From the NCBI GenBank assembly GCA_020852375.1, contig JADZAY010000008.1:9688-73687 (forward strand): a DNA stretch of 64,000 bases, read 5' to 3'. Shown in pieces: positions 1,246 to 42,262 of this stretch. The position numbers and the translations under genes are program-made. The number at the start of each line of letters is the position of its first letter. Positions within the stretch are counted from its first letter, which is position 1. Source of the DNA: Candidatus Yanofskybacteria bacterium (lineage in GTDB: Bacteria; Patescibacteriota; Minisyncoccia; 2-02-FULL-40-12; GWA2-44-9). A model generated the notes under the pieces. It was given only the letters and a program-made list of their open reading frames with translations. It did no database searches and was not told where the DNA came from.

Positions 1246-1247
1246 GT

Positions 1248-4464: not shown

Positions 4465-4498
4465 AGATCAATGCGCCCCCTCAAGCGCAAAATGGGCT

Positions 4499-4825: not shown

Positions 4826-5034
4826 ATGCGAAATGATTAGTGCTTCAGGTATATCACGGTGGGGCGAGGGAATCAACAGAAGAAAAGGAAAGGGCGCCCG
4901 TATACCCCGTAAACCGTAATGGTTGTTTATGGGAGAGCGCCCGTTACCGCCAGACCCCCGACCGGCAATCTTGCCTCGCCGAGAGTTGTTAGGTTGTGCT
5001 GTCGATGTGATGTGTCCGTCGGTCTCCCCAGAAG

Positions 5035-5295: not shown

Positions 5296-6679
5296 GCATG
5301 AGCTGGTCGATGGCGAAGAACATCGCCTCTCGTGAGCCGGTGAGGACGAGGTAATTCTTCCCGTTCGAAGCAAGGACGATGGCGTAGTCGATACTGCGGT
5401 CTGCGTAGGGGAAGTTCCAGTACCGGACGGCGATCTGGCGATAGGTTCCCGTTGAAAACTCCTGCACAACGCGGCGGCTCATACCGTAGCCGAAGAATGG
5501 CGCTCCGGCAGATGCGAGACCGGTATTTTCCCAGACGGTGAGCGCTTGGTTGGCTTTCGTGGCGTTCGAGAGCTCCATCACGATCGCGATGCGAGTTCCG
5601 ACCGCGGCGTCGGGGTCAACGGTGCCGGAGGCGGTGAACTGCTCGGTCTGGCCGAAGGCGAGTACCATCCAGTCGGAGGCGAGCGTTGATGCGAGGTCGG
5701 CCGGCACTCCGCCATCAAGCATAATGTCCAAGAACTGAGCAGCTGTTGCGGACCCGCCGTTCAGCTCCACAATGACCGGAACCGCCTGCTTGCTCTTCGG
5801 CGCAGTGTTCGCAAGGGCGCTTGCGAAATCAGTCCGTGCAACGGTGTCATTCTTCAGCGTCGCAGTCACCGTCTGTCCTTTGAAGTACGAGGAGAGTGAG
5901 CGGCCGAGCACCGGGGCTGATGTTGCTGCAGCGGGAGTGGGGGTTTGGGATGGGGTTGGCGTTTCATCTCCGCCGAAGAGCGATGTAATGAGGAGCGCGA
6001 TCCCTCCGATGACGATCGCGCCGAGGATGCCCACGACGACTTTCTTCAGCATCCCCGAAGGCGCAGTTGCGGCGGGAACGGAAATCGTAGGCGCCTGCCG
6101 AGGCGCTTCGGCAGGCGTTTTTTGTTGCGGCGGAACTCCCATTGGGGCTTGGCCGACGCGGATGTTCCCGATATCGGCCGACATCGTGCGAAGCTCGCTG
6201 CTGTAATCAGCCGCGGTTTCCGTCTTTTGCGTTGGTTTCGGCGCCTGGGGTATTACTGGGGGCGCAGGTGGAGCTGGCGGGCGTGGGGCGACTGGGCGTA
6301 TCGGCGCCACAGGAGTCTTCGGCGGTGGTGGCGGCGGGGGAGGCATCGCGGGTCGTCCGAGCGGCGCGACTCCCTGCGGCGCTGGCGGCATTGCGGGAGG
6401 AGTTTTTGGAGCTTGAGGTGTGGGTGCCGGCGAGGGAGGAGGCGTTGCGACCGGCTGCGGTGCGGCCATTTTGGGTTGTGCTGGTGTCGGGGCGGGCATT
6501 GGTGCCAGAACCGCCGGCTGCGGTGCTTGCCCCGGCGCACGGATCGGGAGATTCGTCGGAGCGCCTGATCGCGTTGGTGCTGGCGGATTCGACGCCTGAT
6601 CTTTTGCCCGCTGAGCCGCGAGGTCATTGAGCATAGCGCTGATACGAGCGGCATTCGGGGATTGCGGTTGGTCGGGCAT
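5291..6679 (-). CDS. Proline-rich membrane-anchored hypothetical protein
   Basis: 462 aa. The N-terminal roughly 200 aa are a low-complexity P/A/Q-rich segment. A single TM helix (VVVGILGAIVIGGIALLITSLFGG) follows. The roughly 220-aa C-terminal globular domain has no recognised motif. Confidence 0.6.
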   Translation of the reverse strand: MPDQPQSPNAARISAMLNDLAAQRAKDQASNPPAPTRSGAPTNLPIRAPGQAPQPAVLAPMPAPTPAQPKMAAPQPVATPPPSPAPTPQAPKTPPAMPPAPQGVAPLGRPAMPPPPPPPPKTPVAPIRPVAPRPPAPPAPPVIPQAPKPTQKTETAADYSSELRTMSADIGNIRVGQAPMGVPPQQKTPAEAPRQAPTISVPAATAPSGMLKKVVVGILGAIVIGGIALLITSLFGGDETPTPSQTPTPAAATSAPVLGRSLSSYFKGQTVTATLKNDTVARTDFASALANTAPKSKQAVPVIVELNGGSATAAQFLDIMLDGGVPADLASTLASDWMVLAFGQTEQFTASGTVDPDAAVGTRIAIVMELSNATKANQALTVWENTGLASAGAPFFGYGMSRRVVQEFSTGTYRQIAVRYWNFPYADRSIDYAIVLASNGKNYLVLTGSREAMFFAIDQLMQ

Positions 6680-6762
6680 TGTGAGAGTGGTTATGCGTCA
6701 ATCATACCTCCGAAGTAGAGAAATCGAAAAGGCCCTCGCGGGCCTTTTCGGAAACGTGTGCG

Positions 6763-8916
6763 TTACGAGTGTCGGCTTCGGTCGCCGCCGCCGCGGGGGC
6801 GTTCCCCTCGCGGCTTTCCGTTTGGGCCGAGCATCGAAAGGGAGATCTTCCCCTCCGGGCTTACGGAGACGACCCACACATGTACTTTTTGGCCTTCCTT
6901 CACCACGTCTGAAGGATGAGCGACTCGTTCGGTGCTCATCTCTGAGACATGGACCATACCGTCCTTGCCGGGGACGATCTCAACGAAAGCGCCGAAATCC
7001 TTTATCGAGACGACAGTTCCGTCGAACTCATCGCCCGGCTTTGGTTCGTAGGTGAGCTGTTCAATGCGCTCGATGGCAAGCTTCATGCCATCCGCAGAGG
7101 CGCAAGTGATGAAGACCATGCCATCGTCTTCGATGTCGATAGTCGCGCCAGTTTCATCGATGATCGCGTTGATCGTCTTTCCACCGGAGCCGATGACCAA
7201 GCCGATCTTTTCGGGGTCGATTCGCATGGTGTGGACGCGCGGGGCATGCGGTGAAAGCTCGGAGCGGGGCGCGGCGATCGCAGATTCCATGACCGCGAGG
7301 ATCTCCAAGCGCGCCTTTCGGGCCTGCGCAAGTGTTTCGCGCACGATGGTCGGTGTGATGCCGTCGATCTTCACATCCATCTGCATGGCTGTGACGCCGT
7401 CTTTTGTTCCGGCCACTTTCAGGTCCATGTCGCCGTGGTGGTCCTCCGGGCCCTGGATATCGGTAAGGATCTTGTAGCTTTCTCCTTTCTCATCCAGCAT
7501 AAGCCCCATCGCGATACCGGCAGCCGGCGCGAGGATCGGGACGCCGCCATCCATAAGCGCAAGGGTGGAGCCGCATACGGATGCCTGCGACGATGACCCG
7601 TTCGATCCGAGAATTTCTGAAACAACACGGATCGTGTAGGGGAATTTCTCCCGAGAGGGGATGATCGGTGCGAGCGCACGCTCGGCGAGGGCTCCATGGC
7701 CAACCTCACGCCGCCCGGGAGCTCCCATGCGTCCCGTTTCACCGACCGAGTACGGAGGGAAGTTGTAGTGGTGGATGAATCCTTTCTTTGTGAGGTCGAT
7801 CTCCATGCTCTCGAGCCACTGCTCTTGGCCCGGCGCGCCGAGCGTTAGCACAGACAGCGCCTGCGTTTCGCCGCGCATAAAGAGCCCGTTTCCGTGGGTG
7901 CGCGGGATCACGCCGATCTCCGCGCTGATGGGGCGGAGCTCATCGAGCTTTCGTCCGTCCACGCGCCGGTTCTTCTCGAGAACGTTGCGGTGAACGACGT
8001 TGTTGATCGCCTCCTCAAACAGACTTTCGGCGGCGGTTTTCTTTGCTTCGAGATCGGGGGCTCCCGCATAGGTCTCGTCCAAGTGCTTCATGAGCTCTTC
8101 TTTCACTGCCGCCTGTCCGGCGTAGTGCTCCGCTTTCGACGATGTGAAGATGGCAGTGTCGAGCTTCGGTTCGCAGAAATCGCGAACCTCGCGGGCGAGC
8201 GCTTCGTCGACGGCCGCCATGGCGAGTTCGGCCTTCTGTTTGCCGACCTCTTTCGCGATCGTTATCTGGAGGTCATTGAGCTCCTTGAGAGCTTTGAATC
8301 CCGCTTCAATGGCATCACCCATGACATCCTCGGAAACGATCTTCGCTCCCGCCTCGATCATATTGATGCGGGTCGAGGTGCCGGAAACGATGATGTCGAG
8401 GTCGCTCTCGAGGCGCTCTGCGTAGGTTGGGTTGATGACGAATGCGCCATTGATGCGGCCGACGCGCACGCTTGCCACCGGACCCGCGTAGGGGATGTCA
8501 GAGATCATGAGCGCCGTGGAAACGGCGAAGACCGCCGGCATATCGGCGTCGTTGATCTTGTCGAAGGTGAGCACGGTCGCAACGCACTGAAGCTCGTTTC
8601 GCGTGCGATGATCGAAGCGAGGGCGAATGGAGCGATCGATGACCCGCCCCGTCAGGATCGCCTCTTCGGTGGGGCGGCCTTCGCGCTTCAGCCACTTCGA
8701 ATCCTTGATCTTCCCCGCAGCGTAATAGCGTTCCTCAAAGTCGACGGACAACGGAAAATAATCCTTCGGGGTGACGTTGCCGAGGACTGCCGTCGCCAGA
8801 ACGGTCGTTTCGCCGTACTGGACCAACACCGAACCGTTCGCTTGCTGCGCCAACTTGCCCGTCTTTATGATGAGCGGCTTTCCCGCGAATGTCGCGGTAT
8901 ATACTTTTTCTGCCAT
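6763..8916 (-). CDS. pnp: Polynucleotide phosphorylase (polyribonucleotide nucleotidyltransferase)
   Basis: Two RNase PH-like domains, then KH (GLVIGSGGKTI) and S1 (GTVVSIKDFGAFVEI) domains. The start is set at the internal MAEKVYTATF... (Met26 of track ORF 6763..8991). A short Arg/Gly-rich C-terminal tail is present. Confidence 0.95.
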   Translation of the reverse strand: MAEKVYTATFAGKPLIIKTGKLAQQANGSVLVQYGETTVLATAVLGNVTPKDYFPLSVDFEERYYAAGKIKDSKWLKREGRPTEEAILTGRVIDRSIRPRFDHRTRNELQCVATVLTFDKINDADMPAVFAVSTALMISDIPYAGPVASVRVGRINGAFVINPTYAERLESDLDIIVSGTSTRINMIEAGAKIVSEDVMGDAIEAGFKALKELNDLQITIAKEVGKQKAELAMAAVDEALAREVRDFCEPKLDTAIFTSSKAEHYAGQAAVKEELMKHLDETYAGAPDLEAKKTAAESLFEEAINNVVHRNVLEKNRRVDGRKLDELRPISAEIGVIPRTHGNGLFMRGETQALSVLTLGAPGQEQWLESMEIDLTKKGFIHHYNFPPYSVGETGRMGAPGRREVGHGALAERALAPIIPSREKFPYTIRVVSEILGSNGSSSQASVCGSTLALMDGGVPILAPAAGIAMGLMLDEKGESYKILTDIQGPEDHHGDMDLKVAGTKDGVTAMQMDVKIDGITPTIVRETLAQARKARLEILAVMESAIAAPRSELSPHAPRVHTMRIDPEKIGLVIGSGGKTINAIIDETGATIDIEDDGMVFITCASADGMKLAIERIEQLTYEPKPGDEFDGTVVSIKDFGAFVEIVPGKDGMVHVSEMSTERVAHPSDVVKEGQKVHVWVVSVSPEGKISLSMLGPNGKPRGERPRGGGDRSRHS

Positions 8917-9104
8917 CTGAATGGCGGCGATGCCGAGCGTGCCTCTCGCATTCTGAGGAGTGCGGGAGGCGGAGTTCACTCTAAGCCGCAATGTTTCGGT
9001 TGAAACGCTTCGGTCTAGATTGAACTCGGTGTCCGTATCGTGCAGGGCCGCGTTGTGAATCTACGCGGAAAAGTATGCCACAAATGACGAGAAAAAGCCA
9101 GCGC

Positions 9105-10010
9105 TTATCGCGCGCTGACAGCCCCCTCTCGGAGGAGTTGTTCGACCTCTTCGAACCCGGGCGGGAACGCGTAGTTGTATCGGGCGGGAATCGCGAAGAC
9201 GTATGCCGCGTTACGCGCGAGTTCGCCCGGTTGGAACGGAGCTGCGCTGACCGACCACTCATCGCTCTGGATATGTTTCCACTGCTCGATCGTGAACACC
9301 ATGATGGGAATGTCCTGGCGCGGTGATGTGGCCGTTGAGAGGGGGTGGGTGATATGGAGCTCGGGGCCGTCGGCGACGGGTATGGATGGCGAATCTCCCC
9401 GCATGGAAACGGCATGCCACGCTTCACGCTGAACCTTAAAACCGATCCAGCTACCGGGGAGTTGAACGCGGAGGCCGTAGGTGACGTCGTCGTACGCCGC
9501 GGCGTACGACACCGACCCTGTCGTGGCGAGCTGCGAGGCGATGGCTCGGAAGACGTCGGTTGTTTCGCGAGAGCTGTCGGCGGTCCAGAGCGCGAACCGA
9601 AGAGCGTCGCGCCCCTCATACCGGGCACAGGCTCGTCCGGGGACATCGGTGCAAAGGAGCGCGTCCGATTGCGGGCCTCCGGCGTTCAGAATTGCGAGCC
9701 CGGAAGTGTCCGGGGTCTTTCCGTTCTTAAGAACTTGGAATCCAACGACCTCCCCGGCTTCACCCTGTTCCGCTTGAGCCGGTGTTCGGTAGGCGATGGG
9801 CGCGATATACCATCCGGCGGGGGCGGTAAGGGTGATCGAGCCCCACGAGAACGAAGGCGATTCCTGCAGGGGAGAGGGAGATGGCTCCGGGGTGGTGGGA
9901 TGCGGGCGAAGTCCCCAAATGAGCCCCAGAGTGATGGTGACAGCGAGCAATATCACCATGACCCCGGTAAGGATGTGTGGTGAGGGAGAGTTTGCTGAGG
10001 GAGCGTTCAT
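9105..10010 (-). CDS. Membrane-anchored hypothetical protein
   Basis: The start is set at the internal MNAPSANS..., followed by a single TM (ILTGVMVILLAVTITLGLIWGL) and a roughly 250-aa extracytoplasmic domain with no recognised motifs. Same architecture as the neighbouring gene. Confidence 0.5.
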   Translation of the reverse strand: MNAPSANSPSPHILTGVMVILLAVTITLGLIWGLRPHPTTPEPSPSPLQESPSFSWGSITLTAPAGWYIAPIAYRTPAQAEQGEAGEVVGFQVLKNGKTPDTSGLAILNAGGPQSDALLCTDVPGRACARYEGRDALRFALWTADSSRETTDVFRAIASQLATTGSVSYAAAYDDVTYGLRVQLPGSWIGFKVQREAWHAVSMRGDSPSIPVADGPELHITHPLSTATSPRQDIPIMVFTIEQWKHIQSDEWSVSAAPFQPGELARNAAYVFAIPARYNYAFPPGFEEVEQLLREGAVSAR

Positions 10011-10012
10011 GG

Positions 10013-10618
10013 CTACTTCGTGAGTTCGAGCGATGACACGATGCGCTCCTGGAGGGCGATATCTTTGTCGATGCGATTGGTGTCGCTTGAGCAGGCCGCG
10101 AACGCAATGCGGAGCGTTTGCTGGCCGAGCGGGGCATGGAAGACCGATGCCGCGCATTCATCATCGCCGATGGTGAAGCGCACGCCCTTGCCCGTCGGCA
10201 GGTCGAGTACCTCGACGTTCTTCGGATCCATTCCATCACGAACGTTCGTGAGACTGACGGGGCGATCGATCACGCCAACAGCCATCCATCCGGACGGTCC
10301 TTTCTGACGCAGGACCTGGGTGATCTGCTCACCACCACCTCCCAGCGGGAGCACTGATTTGGTGTAGGTGATTTCCGGGAACTTCGCCACAGGGTATGCG
10401 ATCTTGAACCCGTACTCACTGTTCGGGTACCACTTCCATGCGTCCGACGGGGCGGGCGTTTTTGATGTGCTCGGGAGCGGCGTCGGGGACGGCAACACCG
10501 AGTCCGACGTGGCGGGCGTCTCTTGGGACACCGTTTCGCTGCGGGAATTCTTCAGAAACCAGCCAGCTGCCAGCACGACTACTACGACTCCGATCGCGAT
10601 TCCGATGCGTTTATTCAT
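10013..10618 (-). CDS. Membrane-anchored hypothetical protein
   Basis: The start is set at MNKRIGIAIGVVVVVLAAGWFL (N-terminal TM). A Ser/Thr/Pro-rich linker is followed by a roughly 130-aa domain. The upstream part of track ORF 10013..10939 is Arg/Ser-rich and probably noncoding. Confidence 0.5.
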   Translation of the reverse strand: MNKRIGIAIGVVVVVLAAGWFLKNSRSETVSQETPATSDSVLPSPTPLPSTSKTPAPSDAWKWYPNSEYGFKIAYPVAKFPEITYTKSVLPLGGGGEQITQVLRQKGPSGWMAVGVIDRPVSLTNVRDGMDPKNVEVLDLPTGKGVRFTIGDDECAASVFHAPLGQQTLRIAFAACSSDTNRIDKDIALQERIVSSLELTK

Positions 10619-10670
10619 ACCCGTACTATGCCAAAAAATGCCGATCCCCGCTAGAGGCGGGGATCGGGGG

Positions 10671-11300
10671 CTACTCTTCGTCGTGTCGGATGCGCGGAGG
10701 CATGAATCCGGTGAGAGTTGCTTCCGGTTTTTCGGTCCGAACCGGTTTTCGGGGGGTTGGCGTGCCAGTTCGGGAGCGGCTTCCCGGAATGCGCATGAGC
10801 ACCTTCTTGTGTTCGTCCAGGTCGTAGTAGTTGTTGACCGCTTCTTTGAGCTTGAGCGAGGTCGAGCGACCGAACGAGACCGCTTCAACGATGAGTCCGT
10901 TATGGCGCAGGTATTCGACGAGGGGAACGAAGTCGCCATCGCCGGTCACCAGGACGGCAACATCGAGCTGCTTCGCCATCGAGATGACGTCAACGGCCAT
11001 ACCGACATCCCAGTCTGCTTTTTTGGCGCCGCCGGCAAAGACCTGGAGGTCTTTCATTTTCAGTTCCAGTCCGCTCTTTTCGAGCGCCTCGAAGAACGGC
11101 TGCTCTTCGGTTTCGCCGCTTTTGACGACGTATACGAGCGCCCGGACGATCTGGCGGTCTGCAACGGCGAGCTTCAACAGCTCGGCAAAATTGATGCGAG
11201 CGTTATGGAGGTGCTTCGCGGAGTGGTACAGGTTCTGCATGTCCACGAACACTCCAACACGGTGGTTACTCCGCGGTTTGATGGTGACCTTGTCCGGCAT
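10671..11300 (-). CDS. NYN-domain (LabA-like, PIN-related) putative ribonuclease
   Basis: The pattern VGVFVDMQNLYHSA...LVYV...GETEEQ...GDGDFVPLVEYLRHNGLIVEAVSF matches the NYN/LabA fold with conserved acidic residues. It is followed by a basic C-terminal tail. Confidence 0.75.
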   Translation of the reverse strand: MPDKVTIKPRSNHRVGVFVDMQNLYHSAKHLHNARINFAELLKLAVADRQIVRALVYVVKSGETEEQPFFEALEKSGLELKMKDLQVFAGGAKKADWDVGMAVDVISMAKQLDVAVLVTGDGDFVPLVEYLRHNGLIVEAVSFGRSTSLKLKEAVNNYYDLDEHKKVLMRIPGSRSRTGTPTPRKPVRTEKPEATLTGFMPPRIRHDEE

Positions 11301-11305
11301 AGCGA

Positions 11306-11572
11306 TTACTTCTTGAGGCCGAGCTTCGACGCGAGTTTCGCGTAGCGCTTTTCGTCGGTGCGCTTGAGGTAGTCGAGCAAGCGCTTGCGCTTGGCGACCA
11401 TCTTCAACAGACCCACGCGGGAGCTGTTGTCCTTTGCGTGCTTCTTCAAATGTTTCGTGAGGGCCTCGATCTCAGCGGTGAACAGGGCGATCTGGCTCTC
11501 CGGCGAGCCCGTGTCCTTTGTGTGGACCTGGTGCTCGGCGATCAACTTCGACTTCTGCTTCGGTGTAAGCAT
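11306..11572 (-). CDS. rpsO: 30S ribosomal protein S15
   Basis: 88 aa, reading MLTPKQKSKLIAEHQVHTKDTGSPESQIALFTAEIEALTKHLKKHAKDNSSRVGLLKMVAKRKRLLDYLK, a canonical S15. Confidence 0.95.
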   Translation of the reverse strand: MLTPKQKSKLIAEHQVHTKDTGSPESQIALFTAEIEALTKHLKKHAKDNSSRVGLLKMVAKRKRLLDYLKRTDEKRYAKLASKLGLKK

Positions 11573-31261: not shown

Positions 31262-31479
31262 GCATCTGCTCCACGCTCGCACGCGCCTCTCCGATGTGCG
31301 CGGCTCGCGTTGCGCTGGGGGACCGCCGTATTCGGCGGTCTTCTGCGTTATCGGCTCCGGTCCTCGCTCACCGTACCTACAGTACGACTCGCTCCGGTTC
31401 TCGCCGATGCCTTGAATCTCATCCAAATACGGCGGTCCGAGCTATGACGCACCGCCTTTATTTCTGCTATGATTCGGGC

Positions 31480-33507
31480 ATGGAAAAGGTCGCCGCCCGG
31501 GAGCGCATTGAGAAGCTCCGAAAACTCATTGACCAGTACCGGTACGAGTACCATGTGCTCGACCGGCTTTCGATATCCGAGGACGCTCTGGACTCGCTGA
31601 AAAAGGAGCTGTTCGATCTTGAGCAGGAGCACCCCGAGCTTATTACCCCTGATTCGCCGACCCAACGGGTCGCTGGGAAGCCGCTGGAGGGATTCACGAA
31701 GGTGGAGCATCCCGGGCGGATGATATCGCTGAACGACGCTTTTTCCGAAGCCGACCTTCGGGCCTGGCGCGAGCGGCTGGAGAATTTTCTAGGCGCGCCG
31801 TATCGCGGAGGATTCTACTGCGATCTGAAGATGGACGGGCTGGCTATCGAGCTGCGCTACGAGCGCGGCGTCTTGGTGCAGGCATCGACGCGGGGAGACG
31901 GTATGGTAGGGGAGGATGTGACGCAGAACATTCGTACCGTCGAGGCGGTTCCGCTACGGCTCCGAGATACGGAGCGAAATATTCCCGAGACGCTCCTGGT
32001 CCGCGGCGAGGCGTTTCTCATGAAGAGTGAGTTCGCACGCATCAATGCGGAGTTGGCTGAAAACGGCGAAAAGACATACGCGAATCCGCGAAACCTCGCC
32101 GCCGGCACGATCCGGCAGCTCGATCCCTCGGTGACCGCCGGACGAAAGTTGTCGTTTTACGGATACAGCGTGGTCGCAACCGACGGCGCATACGGGGGAG
32201 ACTTCGCGACGCATGCCGACGAATATGCGGCGTTGCGCGCGTGGGGTGTTCCGGTCAACCCGCACGGCATCGTTGCCGACGACCTCGACGGCGTGCTGGC
32301 GTTCTATCGTGCATGGGAGGAGAAGCGTGACGCGCTGGACTATGAGTTCGACGGCACGGTCATTTCGGTGAACGACAACGAAATCTATCGCCGCGCGGGT
32401 ATTGTGGGGAAGTCGCCGCGTGGGGCCATCGCATTCAAGTTCGCACCGCGGCAGGCGGAGACCGTCGTCGAAGACATTCAAGTGCAGGTCGGGCGGACCG
32501 GCGTGCTCACGCCTGTCGCGCATCTGCGCCCGGTCCACATCGGCGGCACTACGGTGAGCCGCGCGACACTGCACAATCTCGACGAAGTGCGCCGCCTCGA
32601 TGTGCGCATCGGGGATACGGTCATTGTCGGTCGGGCCGGAGATGTGATCCCCGATATCCTCAAATCGTTACCCGAGCTTCGGCCGGCCGGCGCAAAAGAA
32701 TTCTCTATGCCGAAGAAGTGTCCGGTGTGCGGTGCGGCGATCGTCCAGCAGAACGAGCAGGTTGCCTTCGTGTGTCCGAACACGGAGTGCCCCGCAAAGC
32801 AACGGCGGAGCATGTATCACTTCGCCAGTCGGAATGCGCTGAACATCGAAGGGCTGGGGCCGCAGACCCTTGACCAACTGCTCGATGCCGGACTCATCAC
32901 CGATGCCGCCGACCTGTTCGTGCTGACTCCCGAGGATCTTCTGAACCTGGAGGGATTTGCGGATGTTTCGAGCGCGAAGCTTGTTGGATCCATTCGATCG
33001 CGGAAAAAAGTTCCGCTTTCCCGATTCGTGTATGCGTTGGGCATCGAGCATGTGGGGGAGGAGACTGCGCGGGCGCTCGCCCACCATTTCCATACGCTTT
33101 CCGCGCTTGCAGGTGCATCGGAAGGAGAGCTGGTCGCCGTGCCCGATATCGGTCCGGTGGTTGCGCGGAGTATCGCGGAGTGGTTTGCGCGGCCGTACAA
33201 TAAGCAGCTGCTCAAGAAGTTCGACGCTGCGGGAGTGCAGGTGCTTGCCGAGAAAGGTGCGGCAAAAGGAAAGCTGTCCGGTAAAACGTTCGTGGTCACC
33301 GGGACACTGGACTCCATGAGCCGCGAGGAGGCGGAGGAGAAGATTCGCGCCCTGGGCGGGAAAGCGGTGAGCTCGGTGAGCAAGGCAACGACCGCGGTCA
33401 TCGTGGGAACCAATCCGGGTTCCGCAAAGATCGCTGCCGCCCAGAAATACGGCACTGAACAGCTTACCGAGCAAGAATTCCTTGTTCTCGTCCGCCGAAT
33501 ACCGTGA
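31480..33507 (+). CDS. ligA: NAD-dependent DNA ligase
   Basis: The start is set at MEKVAARERIEKLR.... The adenylation motif is KMDGLA. It has an OB-fold, a Zn finger (CPVCGA...CPNTEC), HhH repeats and a C-terminal BRCT domain (FVVTGTL..SR.EAE). Confidence 0.92.
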   Translation: MEKVAARERIEKLRKLIDQYRYEYHVLDRLSISEDALDSLKKELFDLEQEHPELITPDSPTQRVAGKPLEGFTKVEHPGRMISLNDAFSEADLRAWRERLENFLGAPYRGGFYCDLKMDGLAIELRYERGVLVQASTRGDGMVGEDVTQNIRTVEAVPLRLRDTERNIPETLLVRGEAFLMKSEFARINAELAENGEKTYANPRNLAAGTIRQLDPSVTAGRKLSFYGYSVVATDGAYGGDFATHADEYAALRAWGVPVNPHGIVADDLDGVLAFYRAWEEKRDALDYEFDGTVISVNDNEIYRRAGIVGKSPRGAIAFKFAPRQAETVVEDIQVQVGRTGVLTPVAHLRPVHIGGTTVSRATLHNLDEVRRLDVRIGDTVIVGRAGDVIPDILKSLPELRPAGAKEFSMPKKCPVCGAAIVQQNEQVAFVCPNTECPAKQRRSMYHFASRNALNIEGLGPQTLDQLLDAGLITDAADLFVLTPEDLLNLEGFADVSSAKLVGSIRSRKKVPLSRFVYALGIEHVGEETARALAHHFHTLSALAGASEGELVAVPDIGPVVARSIAEWFARPYNKQLLKKFDAAGVQVLAEKGAAKGKLSGKTFVVTGTLDSMSREEAEEKIRALGGKAVSSVSKATTAVIVGTNPGSAKIAAAQKYGTEQLTEQEFLVLVRRIP

Positions 33508-33519
33508 TAGACTTCCGCC

Positions 33520-35688
33520 ATGCCTTCCGAACCGCACCCGAACACCGCTCCGGAATTCAAATCCGTCCGCGAAGAACACCGCGCTCTGCGTAAGGTCCAG
33601 AAGAGCATGGCTGAACACGGAGCGGTACCCGAAGACCTGGCCGCGGAGCTGGAATCGCTCAAACAGCGAGCCCGCGATCTTGTTGCGCAAGCCGGAGGAT
33701 TCTGGGAGTTGCGGAAACAGCGGCGGGAGACCGAATCTCTGCGGCCAATCGTTCGCTCCGTTTCGTCCGGCCGCGCCGAACTCCGCCGGCGAGCGTTTCA
33801 GATCGCCCGTGCATCGGCACAGCACGGCATGACGGCGTGGGCGGAGCGCGCCCTTGCCGCCCTGGACACCGACCTTCGCGCAATGGACGAGCAGATCGAG
33901 AAGCTCCGGCAGGACCCGGAATCCGCCGTCCAGCTCCGGATGATCGAACTCTCCGGCTGGCGCGACCAACTTCAGGAAGGGTACGCAGCCACGCAATCCC
34001 GCCAAGAGCACCTGGACCGCATGCAGGAGCTCATCCAGGCCGGCAAGCCCATCTTCCTGAAGGGACCCACCGGCACGGGGAAAACGGAGCTGGCCCGCAG
34101 GCTCGTACACGAGCTGTACGGAAAAGACCCTGAAATCGTCCGCGGCAACCCGAACGTGCAGGAGTGGACCATGATCGGGCAGGTGGGGCTCCGGGCAACC
34201 GAGCAGGGAGCAACCGAAACGGTGTTCGACCCCGGTCCGGTCATCCGAGCCATGACCCGGGGCATTCCCGTCGTCATCGACGAGTTCAACCAGATCGATC
34301 CGCAGGTCCGATTCGTGCTCAAGGAGCTGTACAACCGCAGGCCGGGCGACTGCGTGCAGGTGCCGAACAACGGAACGCACTGCATCGAGGACGGATTTGC
34401 CATTATCGTGACTGCCAACCTGGGCAGCCGCTACGAGAAGGCGCGGTTCCCGTTGGACGATGCCGAAGAGCGGGTGTTCCTGGATTGCACCGTGGATGTC
34501 GGCTACCTCCCGCCCCACGAACTCTACGACCTCTGCCTGGCATCGCTTATTGCGGTGCGCGGCCAGGCACCGGTGAGCGCGGCGGAGGCGGCGGACGTCC
34601 TGAAGCGGTACTGCGACGCCGTCAGCGAGATCGACCGCATCTACACGGACGGCACGAGCGCATTCGATCTGGAGGGCAAGGCATCCCGCGGCGTCAAACA
34701 GGCGCTGGAGAAAACCGTCATCGATCCCGGTCTCGCGCTCCGCCTGGTCCGCGACTACGCGGTCGCCGGCTCGCGCGCCGCATCGCTGGCGGAACACCTC
34801 GCGCGCCGCGTCACCGACCTCCTGGTGAACCTCAACAACGACAACGACCGCAACCTCATGGCGAAGGTGTTTTCCCAGTTCGGCATCATCACCGTCCCGA
34901 TCGGCGATCTCGCCGCGACTGCCGCCACCCGCACGGTGCTCTCCTCCGCGCCGCTGCCGGCATCGGAGCGCGGCAGTATCCCGCTCCGCGACGCGGCACT
35001 CCTGGACCCGTACCGCCGCCGCGCCGCGTCCCTGGAAGCGGATGCGGAATCGCTGGGAGTGTCCCGGGTCAAGCCACCGGACACAATCATCCCCGGCGGT
35101 TCGCCGGAGCGCGCATCCGCCGCGGTGACCGCCTTCCTCCGCGACACGTTCCAGAACGCCTGGAGCTACACTCCGAAGCAGCTCGCGATCGCGGAGCAGA
35201 ATCTGAAGCCCGAATTCGTCGCTCCCTCCGTTGTGGACTACGCCGCGCGCAAAGCCGATGTCAATGCGGCGCAATCCGGCCAGTACACCCTGAACCCCGA
35301 AACCGTCGGCATCGACTGGGATTCCCTGACTCCCGAGCAGATCGCCGAACGGACCGAGATCGTCGACCTCAACGCCGATCCCGTATTCGCGAAGCTCGCA
35401 GACAAATCGCTCGCTTCCGTTGCCGACTTCGTTACCCGTACCTACGGCTCCGCCCGTCTCCCCGGTCTGGAGCTGGAACGGCGCCTCTACGCGCTCGGCA
35501 ACCAGGCTCCCGCCGCCTTCAAAGAGGTCGGCGCGTATGTATTTTTCTTCGGATCGCTTATCCGGAACGCCAACGGCTACTGGAATGTGCCGTATGCGTA
35601 CTGGGGCGGTGCGGGGTGGTTTCGGGGCGGCTACTGGCTTGAGAATGGCTGGAATGCCGATTGCCGCCTCGTCCTCGTGAAGAGATAG
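33520..35688 (+). CDS. AAA (AAA_5/MoxR-like) ATPase with a C-terminal C-type-lectin-like variable region, the DGR target protein
   Basis: 722 aa. Walker A FLKGPTGTGKTELARR and Walker B VVIDEFNQ. The C-terminal 40 aa (NANGYWNVPYAYWGGAGWFRGGYWLENGWNADCRLVLVKR) are encoded by the VR copy of the DGR repeat. Confidence 0.8.
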   Translation: MPSEPHPNTAPEFKSVREEHRALRKVQKSMAEHGAVPEDLAAELESLKQRARDLVAQAGGFWELRKQRRETESLRPIVRSVSSGRAELRRRAFQIARASAQHGMTAWAERALAALDTDLRAMDEQIEKLRQDPESAVQLRMIELSGWRDQLQEGYAATQSRQEHLDRMQELIQAGKPIFLKGPTGTGKTELARRLVHELYGKDPEIVRGNPNVQEWTMIGQVGLRATEQGATETVFDPGPVIRAMTRGIPVVIDEFNQIDPQVRFVLKELYNRRPGDCVQVPNNGTHCIEDGFAIIVTANLGSRYEKARFPLDDAEERVFLDCTVDVGYLPPHELYDLCLASLIAVRGQAPVSAAEAADVLKRYCDAVSEIDRIYTDGTSAFDLEGKASRGVKQALEKTVIDPGLALRLVRDYAVAGSRAASLAEHLARRVTDLLVNLNNDNDRNLMAKVFSQFGIITVPIGDLAATAATRTVLSSAPLPASERGSIPLRDAALLDPYRRRAASLEADAESLGVSRVKPPDTIIPGGSPERASAAVTAFLRDTFQNAWSYTPKQLAIAEQNLKPEFVAPSVVDYAARKADVNAAQSGQYTLNPETVGIDWDSLTPEQIAERTEIVDLNADPVFAKLADKSLASVADFVTRTYGSARLPGLELERRLYALGNQAPAAFKEVGAYVFFFGSLIRNANGYWNVPYAYWGGAGWFRGGYWLENGWNADCRLVLVKR
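35557..35677 (+). repeat. DGR variable repeat (VR) at the 3' end of the target gene
   Basis: 121 bp. Compared with the copy at 35961-36081, 111 of 121 positions are identical. All 10 differences are T or G here where the other copy has A. Confidence 0.85.
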
Positions 35689-35960
35689 CTCGTTGTGCTT
35701 GATCCGTTGTGATGATTCTTGATCTGTTGGTGGTTGGTCTGCGCCGCGAATATCGGCAGGCCGGATGTTCCCGTCTGCCGCGGCGTCGAGACGAATGACT
35801 CCCGAATGCGGTCTGCCAGCGCTCGCCGCAGTGCGGGTCATGCACATCGTGACGATACGAAGCGCGTCTGCGTAAGATGCCAGGGCATTGCGATGCCGAA
35901 TCAGATTCAGCCCCGAGGAAGGAGAACCAAGGGGCGGTGACACGGAAGGCATTCTGCGCT

Positions 35961-36081
35961 CATATCCGGAACGCCAACGGCAACTGGAATGTGCCGTATG
36001 CGAACTGGGACGGTACGGGGTGGAATCGGAACGGCAACTGGCTTGAGAATGGCTGGAATGCCGATTGCCGCCTCGTCCTCG
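35961..36081 (+). repeat. DGR template repeat (TR)
   Basis: This is the A-bearing copy. The AAC codons correspond to TAC/TTT/GGC/GCG-type codons in the VR. Identity ends at the same GC-rich 3' block (GCCGATTGCCGCCTCGTCCTCG), a candidate IMH element. Confidence 0.85.
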
Positions 36082-36084
36082 CCG

Positions 36085-36471
36085 CTACGCGCCTGTATGT
36101 CTGCCCGCCTGGTGCTTCCAGCCGTAGAGCATGCGGCCGATCTCTTCCAGGCGGGCGGACAAGTCAGAAAACCTCGTCTCGCCGATTCCTTCAAGCTCCC
36201 ACAGCGCGGTGAGCATGAATTTTAAGACATCGTTTCGCGCGATGGCCCGTGCGAGGAGCGGCGGTCGTTCAAGCGAGGGAGCGAATTGCGCCGCGGCAAT
36301 CAGTTCTACGAGTTCCGCAAAGAGCGCGTCAATACGGATGCCAAGAGAGTAGCGACGCATCTTGGGGATGTGGCGCGTAATGGAATGCCATTGCACATAT
36401 GCAGCGAGCAGTTTTGCGGCAGTTCCGGAAATCCTGTCCGTGCGGATGTTTTTCGGGGGGGGGTGCTCCAT
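36085..36471 (-). CDS. avd: Accessory variability determinant (Avd)-like four-helix-bundle protein
   Basis: 128 aa from the internal MEHPPPKN.... The motifs IPKMRRYSLGIRIDALFAELVELIAAAQ and the C-terminal EIGRMLYGWKHQ match the bAvd / 23S-rRNA-IVS-protein family pattern. It is basic. Its start codon lies 3 bp from the RT start, on the opposite strand. Confidence 0.65.
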   Translation of the reverse strand: MEHPPPKNIRTDRISGTAAKLLAAYVQWHSITRHIPKMRRYSLGIRIDALFAELVELIAAAQFAPSLERPPLLARAIARNDVLKFMLTALWELEGIGETRFSDLSARLEEIGRMLYGWKHQAGRHTGA

Positions 36472-36473
36472 GT

Positions 36474-37466
36474 ATGACTCTGAATGTAGCATACGACAGC
36501 ATATTTTCATACGAGCGGCTCTTCGCGAGCTGGCGTGCGTTTGCGCGCGGGAAGCGGCAGCGTGCGGACGTCGCCGCATACGCCGTGCGCCTGATAGACA
36601 ATATCTCGTCATTGCACCGTGACCTTGCGAACGGAACATGGCAGCATGGCGGGTATCGCCGTTTTTGTGTTTCCGATCCGAAACCGCGCATTATCCACAA
36701 GGCATCGGTACGCGACCGCATTGTCCACCACGCGATCATGTCCGCGCTCGGTCCGTACTTTGAGCGGCGATTCATTCCGGATTCATACTCCTGCAGAATC
36801 GGGAAGGGAACTCATTGTGCGCTGGGCAGGTTCGCGGAGTTCATCCGAAGCGGCAGTCGCAACGACACGCGCACCTGCTGGGTGCTCCAGTGTGACATTC
36901 GGAAGTGCTTCGCATCGCTTGATCAAAGGGTGCTCATCGCACTTCTTTCACGGCATGTACCCTGCGAGAAGTTGATGCGGGTGCTCCGGTCGGTCATTGA
37001 GAGTTACTCGTCCGGGGCATCGGGAGCTGGAATTCCGCTTGGCAACCTCACGAGCCAGCTGTTCGTAAATGTGTACCTTCATGAACTCGACAGGTTCATG
37101 GGGAAGACGCTTCGATGCTTGCAGTATATTCGCTACGCCGATGACTTTGCGGTAGTTTCTCCGAACCGCGCGTGGCTCATGTCACTCGTGCCGCATATCC
37201 GTAATTTTCTGGGCACTGCTCTCAAGTTGCAACTGCATCCGGGCAAACTCACTCTGCGGACAGTCGCTTCGGGCGTGGATTTCCTCGGGTGGGTCCATTT
37301 TCCGAACCACCGCGTCTTGCGCACGGCAACGAAGCGGCGAATGTTCCATGCATTGCGGCGATCCGCCGCGCTTCCGACGGTCGCGTCGTACCTTGGCTTG
37401 CTCGGCAATGGAAATACGCATCGCCTCGTGCAAATGGTCAGAGGGCTTGCTATACTCCACGAATAA
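36474..37466 (+). CDS. DGR-type reverse transcriptase
   Basis: The start is set at MTLNVAYDS.... RT motifs include FIPDSYSCRIGKGTH, the DGR-characteristic IPLGNLTSQLFVNVYL (LGxxxSQ) and the catalytic YADDF. About 330 aa, with no maturase or endonuclease domains. Confidence 0.85.
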   Translation: MTLNVAYDSIFSYERLFASWRAFARGKRQRADVAAYAVRLIDNISSLHRDLANGTWQHGGYRRFCVSDPKPRIIHKASVRDRIVHHAIMSALGPYFERRFIPDSYSCRIGKGTHCALGRFAEFIRSGSRNDTRTCWVLQCDIRKCFASLDQRVLIALLSRHVPCEKLMRVLRSVIESYSSGASGAGIPLGNLTSQLFVNVYLHELDRFMGKTLRCLQYIRYADDFAVVSPNRAWLMSLVPHIRNFLGTALKLQLHPGKLTLRTVASGVDFLGWVHFPNHRVLRTATKRRMFHALRRSAALPTVASYLGLLGNGNTHRLVQMVRGLAILHE

Positions 37467-37468
37467 GC

Positions 37469-39343
37469 ATGACGGAGCGCATCTCGGAGCCAACACCGGA
37501 GCAGACCGCGCGGCGGGAAATGGCCGAGCGAATTTGGCGCGAGCATGGGAGGTATTTTGAATCGTATGCGGGCACGTATGGGTTGGAAGTCAAGCCGTCG
37601 CCTCCCGGACTGGGAACATTCGCTGTCAATTTGGAAAAAGGCATCCTCTATATCGCGACGGAGTGGTTCCTGGAGCGGGGATATTCCGAAGCGGAGATTC
37701 CCGCCTATGTACTGCACGAGATGGAGCATATGCGGGAAGCGGATGCGCTGGTGCGTACTCATGGCGGACTGGGGGTGTGGCGAGAGCACGGCAAGCGGTG
37801 CAAGGCCAGCCGACGATTCCGTATTTTAGATAACTGCGTAGATGACATCAAGATGAACCGGACCGTAATGCTCCGTGCGCCGGTACAGACAGAAACGCTT
37901 CTCGACTTTTATCGCAGGCGGTTCAATGGGGGAACGAATGATCTTTCGGGAGCGCCGCGGCATTTGCAGTTTGCGTACGCGCTCCTGCGGCTGGCAATGT
38001 TGCCTGATGAACCGGTCGTCGTGGCACCCGAAGTACGGGAGGCGCTGGACGAGCTGGAGGCGCTCCGTGGCCGAAGCGGTCGCACCGCGCTGGACATTAT
38101 GACGGATCCACAGGTGGATATGGCCACACGTCTTACGCTCCAGGAAAAAAACGTTGAACCGCTGTTCGAGCGGTTGTATGAGCGGGATCGTCGGGAGCGG
38201 CAACCGGAAAAACCGGGCGATAGCCAGGGCGGGGAGAAAAGTGGCGGCGAAGGCGGGGGCGAGGGCGACGATCCGTTCGCCAGCGAGTATGACCGTTTTG
38301 ATGCGCAGAATCCGGATGGAGCGCTCTCCGACGACGCGCTCGGGGACGCGGTGGACGAGGCGGATGCGTCCGGCGCGCTTGCGCGTCCGCGCGGCGGACA
38401 GCTGGCAGACGCGGCACGGGATGCTCGTTCTGCGTACGCTCGTGAACATGGCGTTTCCGAATCCGAACTTGCCGCATACCGGCGATTCTACGATCAGTTG
38501 ACAGCGCTTACTGACCCCGAAACGGGTCGCACGGTTGTTGACGGTTTGCGGGATGTGTTTGAGCAAATCATTTCGGAACGTGAGCGACCACGGGTGGTGC
38601 CGAAGCATCCGGTTATACATGGCCACCGGCTTTCACGGCCGGCACAGGCGCATATTGCGGCGCGAACGGGCGACCGGCACCCCTCTGTGTGGGAGACGGT
38701 CGAACGAAAGGAGAAAAAAGGCGAGCTGTACGGCGACGTTGATGTAGTGCTCGTCTGTGATCGGTCGGGGAGCATGCTCGGCCAGAAGGCAATCCAGCAG
38801 CGACTGGCGGCGGGTTTGATGCTGGAGGCGCTTGCCGACTTTTCCGAGCTCATCCATGAGCGTGCGAGCGGGCTGACCGATCCGCTGGTCGTGCGAACCC
38901 AGACGTGGTCGTTCGGTGACGAGGCGGTCACGAACGAGCTCAAGCCGTTGAGCGATAACCTAACCGAGCGCGATCGCGTGGCCGTGTTTCATGCGCTCGG
39001 CTCTACTCCGGGCAGCTCCACGATGGATTACGAAGCGCTCAAGCGTATTGCAGACGGCATTGATGCGGGCGAACAGCAACTGCTCCGTCAGAAAAAACTG
39101 AAGAAGATCATCATCGCGCTTACCGATGGCGTTAGTAGCGATATGCCCGCGTTGCGTGGCCAGATTGAGCGGCTCCGTGGCATGGGCGCGGTTGTTGTCG
39201 GTGTTGGTATCACCAAAGACGGCGTATCGGCCGAGACATCATATGCTCCGAACGGCCTTGTCTGTGCGGAGGTCGCAGCTCTGCCGCGCACGCTCGCCGA
39301 CCTATTGAAAAAGCATTTGGCTGACCTGAATGTCCGGCGGTGA
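37469..39343 (+). CDS. von Willebrand factor A domain protein with N-terminal HExxH (zinc-metallopeptidase-like) domain
   Basis: The start is set at MTERISEPTPEQ... (3 bp after the RT stop). The N-terminal domain has YVLHEMEHMREADAL. An acidic Gly-rich linker follows. The C-terminal VWA has a MIDAS-like motif VVLVCDRSGSM...IIIALTDGVS. Confidence 0.75.
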   Translation: MTERISEPTPEQTARREMAERIWREHGRYFESYAGTYGLEVKPSPPGLGTFAVNLEKGILYIATEWFLERGYSEAEIPAYVLHEMEHMREADALVRTHGGLGVWREHGKRCKASRRFRILDNCVDDIKMNRTVMLRAPVQTETLLDFYRRRFNGGTNDLSGAPRHLQFAYALLRLAMLPDEPVVVAPEVREALDELEALRGRSGRTALDIMTDPQVDMATRLTLQEKNVEPLFERLYERDRRERQPEKPGDSQGGEKSGGEGGGEGDDPFASEYDRFDAQNPDGALSDDALGDAVDEADASGALARPRGGQLADAARDARSAYAREHGVSESELAAYRRFYDQLTALTDPETGRTVVDGLRDVFEQIISERERPRVVPKHPVIHGHRLSRPAQAHIAARTGDRHPSVWETVERKEKKGELYGDVDVVLVCDRSGSMLGQKAIQQRLAAGLMLEALADFSELIHERASGLTDPLVVRTQTWSFGDEAVTNELKPLSDNLTERDRVAVFHALGSTPGSSTMDYEALKRIADGIDAGEQQLLRQKKLKKIIIALTDGVSSDMPALRGQIERLRGMGAVVVGVGITKDGVSAETSYAPNGLVCAEVAALPRTLADLLKKHLADLNVRR

Positions 39344-39358
39344 TATCTGAAACAGCGC

Positions 39359-39679
39359 GTGCATACGGCATGGATTGACTTTGATTCTCGTACGGCCTAC
39401 CATCGGGTTATGGAAAAAGACGTGCGTGACGCCATCGAGGATTTAGCGCTTGTGACGGCTCGCGAGTTTCAAACACTTCGAGAAGATCTCAAGCAGTTTG
39501 CCACGAAAGAAGATCTCAAGCAGTTTGCCACGAAAGAAGATCTCGCGGCGGGATTTTCAATGGTGATGGATATTATTCGTCCTATGCGGCGGGATTATGA
39601 AGCTCTTAAAGACGACCTGGCGCCCCGGATGGATAGCGTGGAGCAGCGCCTGCTGAAGGTGGAGCACAAGGTTGCATAG
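39359..39679 (+). CDS. Small coiled-coil hypothetical protein with internal tandem repeat
   Basis: 106 aa (alternative start MEKDVRDA). It contains a 27-bp tandem duplication encoding KEDLKQFAT twice. Confidence 0.4.
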   Translation: MHTAWIDFDSRTAYHRVMEKDVRDAIEDLALVTAREFQTLREDLKQFATKEDLKQFATKEDLAAGFSMVMDIIRPMRRDYEALKDDLAPRMDSVEQRLLKVEHKVA

Positions 39680-40532: not shown

Positions 40533-40838
40533 ATGCTGACAGATGCAGAAGTAAATCATATCGCCAAACTTGCGCGCATCGAGCTCACCGATGCATTGCG
40601 TGAGCGGATGAAAAAAGACCTCTCGAGCGTGCTCGAGTATGTCGCATTGCTTGAGAAGGCCGATACCGCCGGCGTCGAGCCGTTGTATCAGGTGACCGGT
40701 CTTCAGAACCAAACCCGGCCCGACGAGCGTCGCGCCGATTTTCCCATGGACGCAGCGCTCTTCGAGCGCCTGGTCGGGCAGGCGCCGGCTCATGATGGGC
40801 GCCTTGTGAAGGTGAAGGCGGTTAAACGAACGACATGA
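40533..40838 (+). CDS. gatC: Asp/Glu-tRNA(Asn/Gln) amidotransferase subunit C
   Basis: 101 aa. [40 protein letters not shown] is typical GatC. Its stop overlaps the gatA start. Confidence 0.88.
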
Positions 40839-42262
40839 AGGATTTCGGATATACTATCGCATCTGCACGGGAAGCATTTTTGTCGGGGACGCTCACGCCC
40901 GAGCGGTTGTTCGAGCACTACCAGCGTCGGATCGCCGAGCAGAACGGCACCCTGAACGCCTACCGTTCGGTCGATTTTTCATATGCTGACCACGGGCGCG
41001 ATGCGTCGATCCTTGCCGGGATTCCATATGCCCTGAAAGACAACATGCTTGTCGGCGGGACGATCGCGACAGCCGGATCGAAGATCCTCGAGCGCTATGT
41101 TTCCGCATACGATTCGACCGTGTACGCGAAGCTCCGATCCGGAGGCGCACAGCTTCTCGGGAAGACCAATATGGATGAGTTCGCTATGGGGTCGTCAGGG
41201 GAGAACAGTGCGTACGGTGTCGTACGGAACCCATGGGACACGGACCGTGTTCCCGGGGGAAGTTCCGCCGGCTCTGCTGCTGCCGTCGCCGCCGACCTGT
41301 GTGTATTTTCTCTGGGATCGGATACGGGCGGCTCGATCCGTCAGCCCGCCGCGATGTGTGGTGTGGTTGGGTTGAAGCCGACGTACGGCCGCGTGAGTCG
41401 GCATGGCTTGATGGCAATGGCATCGTCGCTTGACCAGATCGGGCCATTCACGAAGACCGTTGAAGACGCGGCGCTGGTGCTCGGTGCCATCGCAGGGCCG
41501 GATCCGCTTGATTCGACGACCGTTCCGCATGATGTGCCAGACTATGTAGCGGAAATGAACGGGGACATGACCGGCGTGCGCGTCGGTGTTCCAAAGGAAT
41601 ATTTTGGAGAAGGCTTGAGCGCCGAGGTTCGTGAGCGCGTCGAGGGGGGGATCCGCGCATTGGAGCGCGCGGGTGCCGAGATTGTTGAGGTATCGTTGCC
41701 GCACAGCGCATACGCGCTGGCGGTCTACTATATCGTTCAGCCGAGCGAAGTGTCTGCGAACCTTGCGCGATACGACGGCATTCGGTACGGGCACTCCGCT
41801 TCCGATGCCGATACGCTGCTGGAGGTATACACCAAGAGCCGTGCGCAGGGATTTGGACCCGAGCCGCTCCGGCGCATCATGCTCGGCACCTATGCGCTGT
41901 CGGCGGGGTATTTTGATGCCTATTATCTGAGGGCGCAAAAAGTCCGCGCGCTCATCCGGCAGGACTTCGATCGCGCGTTCGAGCGTGTCGATGTGATCGT
42001 CGGTCCGACGTCGCCGACCGTCGCGTTCAAAATTGGAGAGAAGAGCGATGACCCGCTTGCGATGTATCTCTCTGATATCTACACGGTGCCCGTGAACCTC
42101 GCAGGAGTACCGGCTCTTTCGGTGCCATGTGGGCTTGGCGCAGCATCCGGGTTGCCAGTCGGTTTCCATATCATCGGGGACATGTTCCGGGAGGGAATGG
42201 TCCTGCGCGTCGCGCGCCATATTGAACATGCTGTACGAGAATCTTCGGAACACACTCACTGA
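40835..42262 (+). CDS. gatA: Asp/Glu-tRNA(Asn/Gln) amidotransferase subunit A (amidase)
   Basis: Amidase signature [13 protein letters not shown] with the Ser-cisSer-Lys triad context. 475 aa. No gatB follows. Confidence 0.92.

Follow-up and report, generated by a model that had tools for sequence, protein, structure and literature searches.

Diversity-generating retroelements (DGRs) are unusually common in Candidate Phyla Radiation (CPR) bacteria, where the commonest type of target is an AAA ATPase with a variable tail. What such an ATPase works with is the question raised by one of these elements, found in a stretch of 64,000 nucleotides from Candidatus Yanofskybacteria (contig JADZAY010000008.1, positions 9,688 to 73,687; GC content ~60%), here referred to as the window. 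The element is part of a compact cassette between ligA (31294–33507) and gatA (40835–42262). On one side of it lies the gene of the diversified ATPase, which contains an AAA_5 module, and on the other, directly behind the reverse transcriptase (RT) gene, that of a protein of 624 amino acids with a C-terminal von Willebrand A (VWA) domain. We conclude that this protein is very probably the dedicated partner, with a VWA domain and metal ion-dependent adhesion site (MIDAS), of the AAA_5 ATPase encoded across the DGR. The fuller proposal, in which the system's core is an AAA_5 ATPase paired with a zincin-like VWA protein and equipped with a swappable sensor, is in our view probable.

The two proteins and the retroelement between them

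The VWA gene is an open reading frame (ORF) at 37469–39343 on the forward strand that encodes 624 amino acids and has no internal stop codons. Its ATG at 37469 follows the stop codon of the RT gene (TAA, 37464–37466) after a spacer of 2 nt, and no promoter-like or terminator-like site was seen at the junction. An equally tight order occurs at two related loci, with spacers of 1 nt (L001) and 12 nt (L002), and by tblastn the VWA gene follows the RT at L001, L002/L007, L003, L006, L008, L010, L011, L012 and L013. Given the lack of any such site at the junction and the tight order at nine or more other loci, the sequence makes it likely that the two genes are co-transcribed.

The C-terminal part of the protein (38741–39343) is a VWA domain with a complete MIDAS. 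The Pfam VWA model (PF00092) matches residues 425–584 with E = 2.2 × 10−8 and a score of 34.9 bits against a cut-off of 23.8, and the AlphaFold2 (AF2) model shows an alpha/beta Rossmann-like VWA fold in which the predicted local distance difference test (pLDDT) score is mostly above 90 over residues 421–600. The MIDAS residues D431 (38759–38761), S433, S435, T518 (39020–39022) and D553 (39125–39127) are invariant in 22 homologues. Across 129 full-length members of the family, D431 is present in 129 of 129, S433 in 127 (Thr in the other 2), S435 in 128 (Thr in 1), T518 in 118 (Asn in 10) and D553 in 128 of 129. Foldseek aligns the domain with TEM8, with the VWA domain of NorD in the NorQ–NorD complex (9qh8_G) and with the MIDAS of Rea1 (6qt8) at E-values of 3 × 10−8 to 1 × 10−7; the Rea1/MDN1 MIDAS is among the top structural matches of the domain. 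The alignments to NorD and to the Rea1 MIDAS span 291–318 columns, compared with ~200 for stand-alone VWA domains. Nothing follows the VWA domain at the C-terminus; the variable domain is carried by the AAA protein instead.

Upstream of the VWA domain, the segment 38204–38740 encodes a linker (approximately residues 246–330) and a pre-VWA segment (330–424). The linker is acidic and Gly-rich and is modelled with low confidence (pLDDT < 50 at residues 251–266 and 306–315; mean pLDDT of the full-length model 80). The pre-VWA segment is helical and extended and is conserved, with the family consensus PKxPxSEGExLxRPAEA...EPEVWET. No signal-peptide-like or transmembrane segment was detected in the VWA protein or in the AAA target (maximum Kyte–Doolittle value of the latter 1.32), and both are probably cytoplasmic because neither has a hydrophobic segment.

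The ATPase gene (33520–35688, forward strand) encodes 722 amino acids. The protein consists of an N-terminal coiled region, a single AAA_5 module of the MoxR/midasin type, a helical middle part and a small C-terminal domain containing the variable region (VR). Pfam AAA_5 matches residues 178–303 (E = 1.7 × 10−13), and both the Walker A motif GPTGTGKT (181–188) and the Walker B residues D254–E255 are invariant in 15 AAA homologues. By sequence, the best matches of the module among solved structures are the AAA modules of midasin (E = 9 × 10−13) and NorQ (E = 1.5 × 10−3).

The VR occupies the last ~40 codons of the ATPase gene (35558–35677) and recurs downstream, also on the forward strand, as the template region (TR, 35962–36081), the two lying within a 130-nt direct repeat with 89% identity. 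VR and TR differ at 9 positions, all 9 of which are adenines in the TR. The possibility of another VR in the window was rejected, as 35558–35677 is the sole VR copy there. The accessory gene avd, whose exact start is uncertain, lies on the reverse strand at approximately 36085–36411 (Pfam bAvd, E = 5 × 10−9; NCBIfam NF033474 DivGenRetAVD, E = 1.9 × 10−10), and the RT gene (36474–37466, forward strand) starts from an in-frame ATG at 36474 within an ORF that is open from 36399 (RVT_1, E = 6.3 × 10−18; PADLOC RT, E = 4.8 × 10−48). With an adenine-specific TR/VR pair, an RT and an Avd protein, the DGR is real. Its layout, with avd on the opposite strand, is the CPR-typical B3 architecture, in which the order and orientation of avd and TR are variant; according to Wu et al. 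(2018, PMC5758913), 90% of CPR DGRs have it. Nine consecutive G at 36455–36463, located 11 nt upstream of the RT ATG and inside the long reverse-strand ORF that contains avd, might serve as a ribosome-binding site or be prone to slippage.

A preliminary description of the locus, made from its letters, had already recognized a C-terminal VWA domain with a MIDAS-like DxSxS...T...D motif, a HEMEH motif in the N-terminal part, and a DGR flanked by the AAA gene and the VWA gene, all of which we find as described. It had also placed the start of the VWA gene 3 bp after the RT stop; the close spacing holds, the figure being 2 nt. Its suggestion that the retroelement diversifies one component of the machine applies to the C-terminal ligand-binding tail of the ATPase, and not to the ATPase fold or the VWA fold itself.

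Gene linkage and sensor exchange at related loci

A word-indexed search with the VWA protein identified 25 relatives in 5.8 billion proteins, with E-values down to 0; the corresponding search with the AAA target returned only 3 proteins. A full profile search with the N-terminal domain extended the VWA family to 485 clusters at 50% identity, 313 of them at E up to 1 × 10−10. Almost all of these clusters are 600–800 amino acids long, which indicates that the two-domain architecture is the rule. The 13 genome loci with the family all belong to Patescibacteria or to unclassified metagenome-assembled genomes, the classified ones being Kaiserbacteria, Berkelbacteria, Peribacteria and Absconditabacterales.

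The arrangements at related loci were established by tblastn with the four proteins of the window. Loci with enough flanking DNA to be informative number ~16 (the window, L001, L002/L007, L004, L008, L010, L012, L016–L023 and L069), and an AAA_5 gene is part of the cassette at all of them, whether or not an RT was found; no informative locus lacks it. The proposal that the VWA protein belongs with an AAA_5 neighbour would have been contradicted by homologues never found beside such genes; the neighbour is there in ~16 of ~16 cases. An AAA_5 homologue occurs together with an RT in the window, L001, L002/L007, L004, L008, L010 and L012. In five of these loci (L001, L002, L004, L008 and L012, not L010) the AAA gene has a VR at its 3' end, with the TR 360–490 nt downstream except in L012, where another VR in between increases the distance to ~1.4 kb. 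The gene order in L004 is VWA, AAA target, Avd, RT. In L012 (region 5004–6556), the single TR (6437–6556) matches two VRs, one at the end of the AAA_5 gene and the other within a duplicated C-terminal segment ~940 nt further downstream. L014 and L015 have a divergent RT and use genetic code 25.

The pair also occurs where no RT was detected. At L016–L022, which contain more distant members of the family (23–30% identity), the AAA_5 gene is adjacent or nearly so to the VWA gene, and tblastn found no RT in the 7–16 kb of sequence available per locus. The comparison of neighbourhoods with and without a detected RT shows that the pair is kept in both, and the adjacency at these RT-less loci fits an AAA–VWA pair that is split by the retroelement in the window. 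The flanking genes differ among loci (ligA/gatA; hisS/MFS; purD), and the cassette is therefore the conserved unit. The reverse association, from AAA homologue to VWA gene, was approached in two ways: an alignment of 15 AAA members had no stretch conserved enough for a scan, and a metagenome scan based on 6 AAA members, using a generic Walker A pattern, yielded 45 AAA loci that are unrelated and contain no homologue of the VWA protein or the RT.

Three of these loci have further features of their own. L069 has the same gene order as the window (ligA, AAA, VWA, gatC, gatA, VanW) at 62–74% amino-acid identity, but at 5900–6400, which corresponds to 35914–36880 of the window, it lacks ~970 bp comprising the TR, avd and the first ~137 codons of the RT gene. 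Its VR differs from the TR of the window mainly at TR adenines. From its sequence L069 looks like a decayed DGR in which the AAA and VWA genes have been retained, although with ~2.5× coverage and many frameshifts the deletion could be an artefact. L016 is a complete code-25 Patescibacteria chromosome with a GC content of 25%; at 974–11470 its VWA gene is divergent from tandem near-identical AAA_5 paralogues, and a gene for a patatin-like phospholipase lies immediately downstream. L023 (1759–16376) contains a VWA gene, a tandem pair of AAA_5 paralogues with scattered, VR-like differences in their last ~40 residues, and an Avd gene on the minus strand, with no RT found within that stretch. It resembles a defence island, with neighbouring genes for ThiF and Prok-JAB, a helix-turn-helix (HTH) protein and SIR2_2.

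The third element of the cassette is exchanged while the pair stays. The same AAA scaffold carries C-terminal VR domains of different sequence classes. At L010 the VR resides on a separate target of 337 amino acids (3538–4551) encoded between the VWA and AAA_5 genes. At L016 arrays of WG_beta_rep repeats (E = 7.6 × 10−41) are fused to the C-terminus of the tandem AAA paralogues and differ in repeat number; at L019 a separate WG-repeat protein follows the AAA/VWA pair, and at L020 there are at least two leucine-rich repeat (LRR) proteins downstream of it. The DGR-diversified tail thus sits where other loci hold recognition repeats, which supports reading the tail as the sensor of the AAA/VWA machine. 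As for the separate L010 target, it has a canonical CLec-type ending (...NYGFRPSVNI); its first ~80 nt recur with 96% identity at 6482–6562, immediately behind the AAA_5 gene, which hints at another paralogue of the target.

The N-terminal domain of the VWA protein

The domain encoded at 37469–38203 (residues 1–245) contains the HEMEH motif at residues 83–87 (37715–37729). The motif is located on a predicted helix (76–96) that is preceded by predicted beta-strands at 40–43, 52–54 and 59–62, which is the zincin order. Modelled alone, the domain reaches a pLDDT of 92.6 and a predicted template modelling (pTM) score of 0.87. Among the 129 full-length family members, H83 is conserved in 128, E84 in 129, N122 in 123, D126 in 126, N130 in 119, H165 in 128 and Q167 in 129; P163 is also near-invariant. 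The sequence offers three candidates for a third metal ligand, namely position 90 (Glu, Asp or His in 120 of 129), D126 and H165.

Scans of the domain with Pfam, NCBIfam and PADLOC gave no match, even at E up to 10 with 15 members, and neither did a sequence search of the PDB with a narrower profile of the domain. When a broader, 31-member profile was compared with the PDB, selecase and proabylysin ranked first with sub-significant E-values of 0.12–0.16, in alignments that span the strands and the HExxH helix. The best Foldseek match, again selecase, has a sub-significant E-value of 0.5. Several zincins (selecase, abylysin, M48, Wss1 and IrrE) are among the top-ranked weak matches by structure and profile, and the domain has no significant match to any known peptidase family or PDB fold. 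As several weak lines of evidence agree and none is significant, we describe the domain as zincin-like, not as a member of a peptidase family, and any metallopeptidase label would apply at the level of the predicted fold. The preliminary description, which had called this part metallopeptidase-like, is thus borne out for an HExxH motif on a helix behind a beta-sheet and not for similarity to a peptidase family, and annotation of both halves of the protein with profile models settled the VWA half, through Pfam, without a family for the other. The closest known proteins, the minigluzincins and M48-like zincins (selecase, proabylysin, projannalysin, ZMPSTE24 and BepA), differ in that the present domain is about twice as large, the similarity is not significant, and the spacing of the motif varies within the family.

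Possible function of the cassette

We propose that the cassette encodes a machine of three modules. A MoxR/midasin-type AAA+ ring would be the motor. A ligand-binding sensor at or beside the C-terminus of the motor, here the small VR domain rewritten by the DGR, would form the second module, and the third would be the VWA protein, which by analogy with NorQ–NorD, CbbQ–CbbO and midasin may dock on the AAA ring and bring the zincin-like domain as output. The variable tail would bind a ligand that changes over time, with a phage protein or that of another invader as the most plausible candidate, and the bound ligand would alter ATPase activity. The motor could then pull or twist the VWA protein and its long linker, whereby the zincin-like domain would be activated or positioned for cleavage of a substrate; alternatively, the bound ligand itself could be remodelled or processed through the MIDAS site. 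The DGR would supply fresh sensor specificities. [quoted passage not shown]

A role in conflict or defence is suggested by the hypermutation, the expansion of paralogues, the LRR and WG sensors and the occasional defence-type neighbours (ThiF/JAB, SIR2_2, patatin), and by analogy with a published parallel in multicellular bacteria (discussed below). We consider defence or the sensing of invaders possible, at somewhat less than even probability. More specifically, and only tentatively, the cassette might be an innate-immune-like receptor of CPR bacteria in which a MoxR-type AAA+ ATPase takes the place of the STAND NTPase, the tail is rewritten by the DGR or exchanged for LRR or WG repeats, and a VWA-tethered zincin output is switched mechanically. 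If this is correct, the cassette would amount to a protease or sensor that runs on ATP and whose specificity is programmable, and the receptor reading would account for the commonest CPR class of DGR targets.

Several observations weigh against this picture. No PADLOC model matches the VWA protein, the loci examined share no consistent defence-island context, and most neighbours of the cassette are housekeeping genes. The occurrence of the L069 cassette at the same ligA/gatCA site suggests stable vertical inheritance and not a mobile defence island. All MoxR–VWA pairs of known function are maturation chaperones and not immune systems (PMC13036017, PMC9976466). At the RT-less loci a DGR acting in trans is conceivable, and the C-terminus of the AAA protein at L018 looks VR-like even though no RT was found there. 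As to the putative peptidase, the HExxH spacing is present in 103 of the 129 full-length members, and most of the other 26 (~20% of the family) have HExxxH, a spacing that is odd for a catalytic zincin, so that the metal site may be built differently; moreover, member P0025 lacks the first His. Members with HExxxH, including P0070, P0077, P0098 and P0164, keep the MIDAS motif and H165/Q167; in P0067 the second His is replaced by Glu.

The last of these points lead to a different view of the N-terminal domain, in which HExxH is a remnant with a structural or metal-binding role and the protein serves as a MIDAS adaptor or scaffold rather than an enzyme. The variable spacing, the member without the first His and the sub-significant level of every zincin match agree with this view, as does the observation that peptidase domains in effector position are mostly catalytically inactive in vWA ternary systems (Kaur et al. 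2020, PMC7159879). The pattern of conservation speaks for the other side: H83 and E84 persist in 128–129 of 129 members and N122, D126, N130, H165 and Q167 in 119–129 of 129, which, judged from sequence, is active-site-like rather than decaying. We therefore hold a non-enzymatic domain to be possible, if rather doubtful. A more conventional role for the whole pair would be that of an ordinary MoxR–VWA maturation chaperone for a housekeeping enzyme, like NorQD, CbbQO, RavA–ViaA or the chelatases, with the tail tuning client binding. All experimentally characterized MoxR–VWA pairs are chaperones or metal insertases, and the housekeeping surroundings and their synteny in one relative (L069) would suit such a role; but no conserved client gene accompanies the pair, whose flanks vary at every locus, and hypermutation, tandem paralogues with varied repeat arrays and LRR or WG sensors point to changing ligands and not to a fixed client. 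The HExxH domain of the VWA protein is also absent from the partners of the chaperones, and we consider this explanation unlikely.

Two other alternatives place the function outside the AAA/VWA machine or outside the cell. The VWA protein could be an accessory factor of the DGR that aids cDNA synthesis or retrohoming, in the manner of Avd, HRDC or MSL, and not a partner of the target. Its gene starts 2 nt after the RT stop and directly follows the RT at no fewer than nine related loci, as an accessory factor might; on the other hand, the family stands beside AAA_5 in L016–L022, where no RT was found, its gene in L004 lies upstream of the target gene, at a distance from the RT, and L069, which lacks the TR, avd and the RT gene's 5' part, still has the VWA and AAA genes. 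Added to this, the exchange of sensors counts against a retrohoming factor, the protein has no nucleic-acid-binding domain, and Wu et al. (2018, PMC5758913), who define four classes of accessory genes for DGRs, mention no VWA protein, all of which makes an accessory role very unlikely. The remaining alternative is an interaction between the CPR episymbiont and its host, with the tail binding host molecules after export by an unrecognized route. Such roles were proposed earlier for CPR/DPANN DGR targets, as cited in PMC10907252, and the family appears to be restricted to CPR bacteria among the classified loci; export is at odds with the absence of signal peptides and transmembrane segments from both proteins, with the requirement of AAA+ ATPases for cytoplasmic ATP and with the report of Roux et al. 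that CPR targets lack membrane anchors. This makes a host-directed function improbable.

The coupling of MoxR–vWA systems to DGRs has precedents. DGR-diversified sensors in MoxR–vWA conflict systems were described by Kaur, Burroughs, Iyer and Aravind (2020, PMC7159879) and by Dore et al. (2024, PMC10907252). Those ternary systems share with the present cassette an AAA_5/MoxR ATPase, a vWA protein, a DGR-diversified domain of the C-type-lectin type and a peptidase or, here, peptidase-like module; a cytoplasmic or regulated nature is predicted for their parts, too, and the variable domain has been interpreted as sensor or effector. The wiring is different. In the ternary systems the vWA protein carries the variable FGS/CLec domain as a fusion, whereas here it is on the ATPase or stands alone, and they include a third protein, VMAP or iSTAND with a trypsin or caspase domain, in contrast to the zincin-like domain on the vWA protein itself. 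General Pfam and PADLOC scans of the five cassette genes, which contained no VMAP-specific profile and did not extend over the 1.1 kb before gatA, showed no VMAP, iSTAND, FtsH, trypsin or caspase. The survey of Kaur et al. left CPR bacteria out of its multicellularity statistics, and its text does not contain this architecture (PMC7159879).

AAA-type DGR targets of CPR bacteria are likewise on record. AAA-CLec targets were known from Paul et al. (2017), as cited in PMC10907252, where the AAA domain was proposed to transduce a signal from the CLec tail, and Wu et al. (2018, PMC5758913) listed CPR 'UVR4/Midasin' targets in the P-loop category g1. These targets have the same midasin-like AAA domain with a C-terminal VR and the same B3 cassette. 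Whether the non-membrane CPR targets are genuine was left open by Roux et al. The idea of a DGR-diversified AAA/VWA machine is supported for this locus, while its two ingredients, MoxR–vWA coupling to DGRs and AAA-CLec targets in CPR bacteria, had been published before. Full-text literature searches (DGR with von Willebrand or Patescibacteria), whose coverage did not include Paul et al. (2017), returned no paper on the present pair. We found the VWA partner, its N-terminal domain and the RT-less relatives nowhere in the searchable literature, and Paul et al. (2017) could hold a prior mention.

The pair can be compared with several better-known machines. Like NorQ–NorD, CbbQ–CbbO and RavA–ViaA, it has an AAA_5 ATPase with one module and a VWA/MIDAS partner encoded beside it; those pairs serve fixed clients (cNOR, Rubisco and fumarate reductase/LdcI) and have no hypervariable or HExxH domain. 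In midasin/Rea1, AAA_5 and MIDAS act jointly on a bound ligand, but there six AAA modules and the MIDAS form one chain of 550 kDa, whereas here each chain has one module and the MIDAS is on a separate protein. With NLR/STAND-type receptors, which join an NTPase to an LRR, WD or TPR sensor, the system shares its logic: a repeat sensor (LRR, WG propeller) sits at the C-terminus of the NTPase core or beside it and changes between paralogues. It differs from them in that the NTPase is a MoxR-type AAA+ and the output would run via a separate VWA protein.

The finding is of interest because the main class of CPR DGR targets gains a concrete molecular context. A constant MIDAS/VWA partner with an HExxH domain would turn a 'hypothetical' CPR target into a defined three-module machine that is open to experiment. 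It also extends the theme of MoxR–vWA systems coupled to DGRs from multicellular bacteria to genome-reduced symbionts, with different wiring, and it defines a sizeable uncharacterized family of at least 485 clusters at 50% identity whose N-terminal fold has no significant match in the PDB.

Two observations concern the surroundings of the cassette. An ORF of 106 amino acids with a tandem KEDLKQFAT repeat (39359–39679) lies 3' of the VWA gene; it was considered as a part of the system and rejected, having no family match, and since it has no homologue at any related locus it is probably outside the system. On the other side of the cassette, ligA (31294–33507) encodes an NAD-dependent DNA ligase with ~130 residues ahead of the adenylation domain; in the ligase of L069, a Pfam Nlig-Ia domain is recorded in the N-terminal position, before the adenylation domain.

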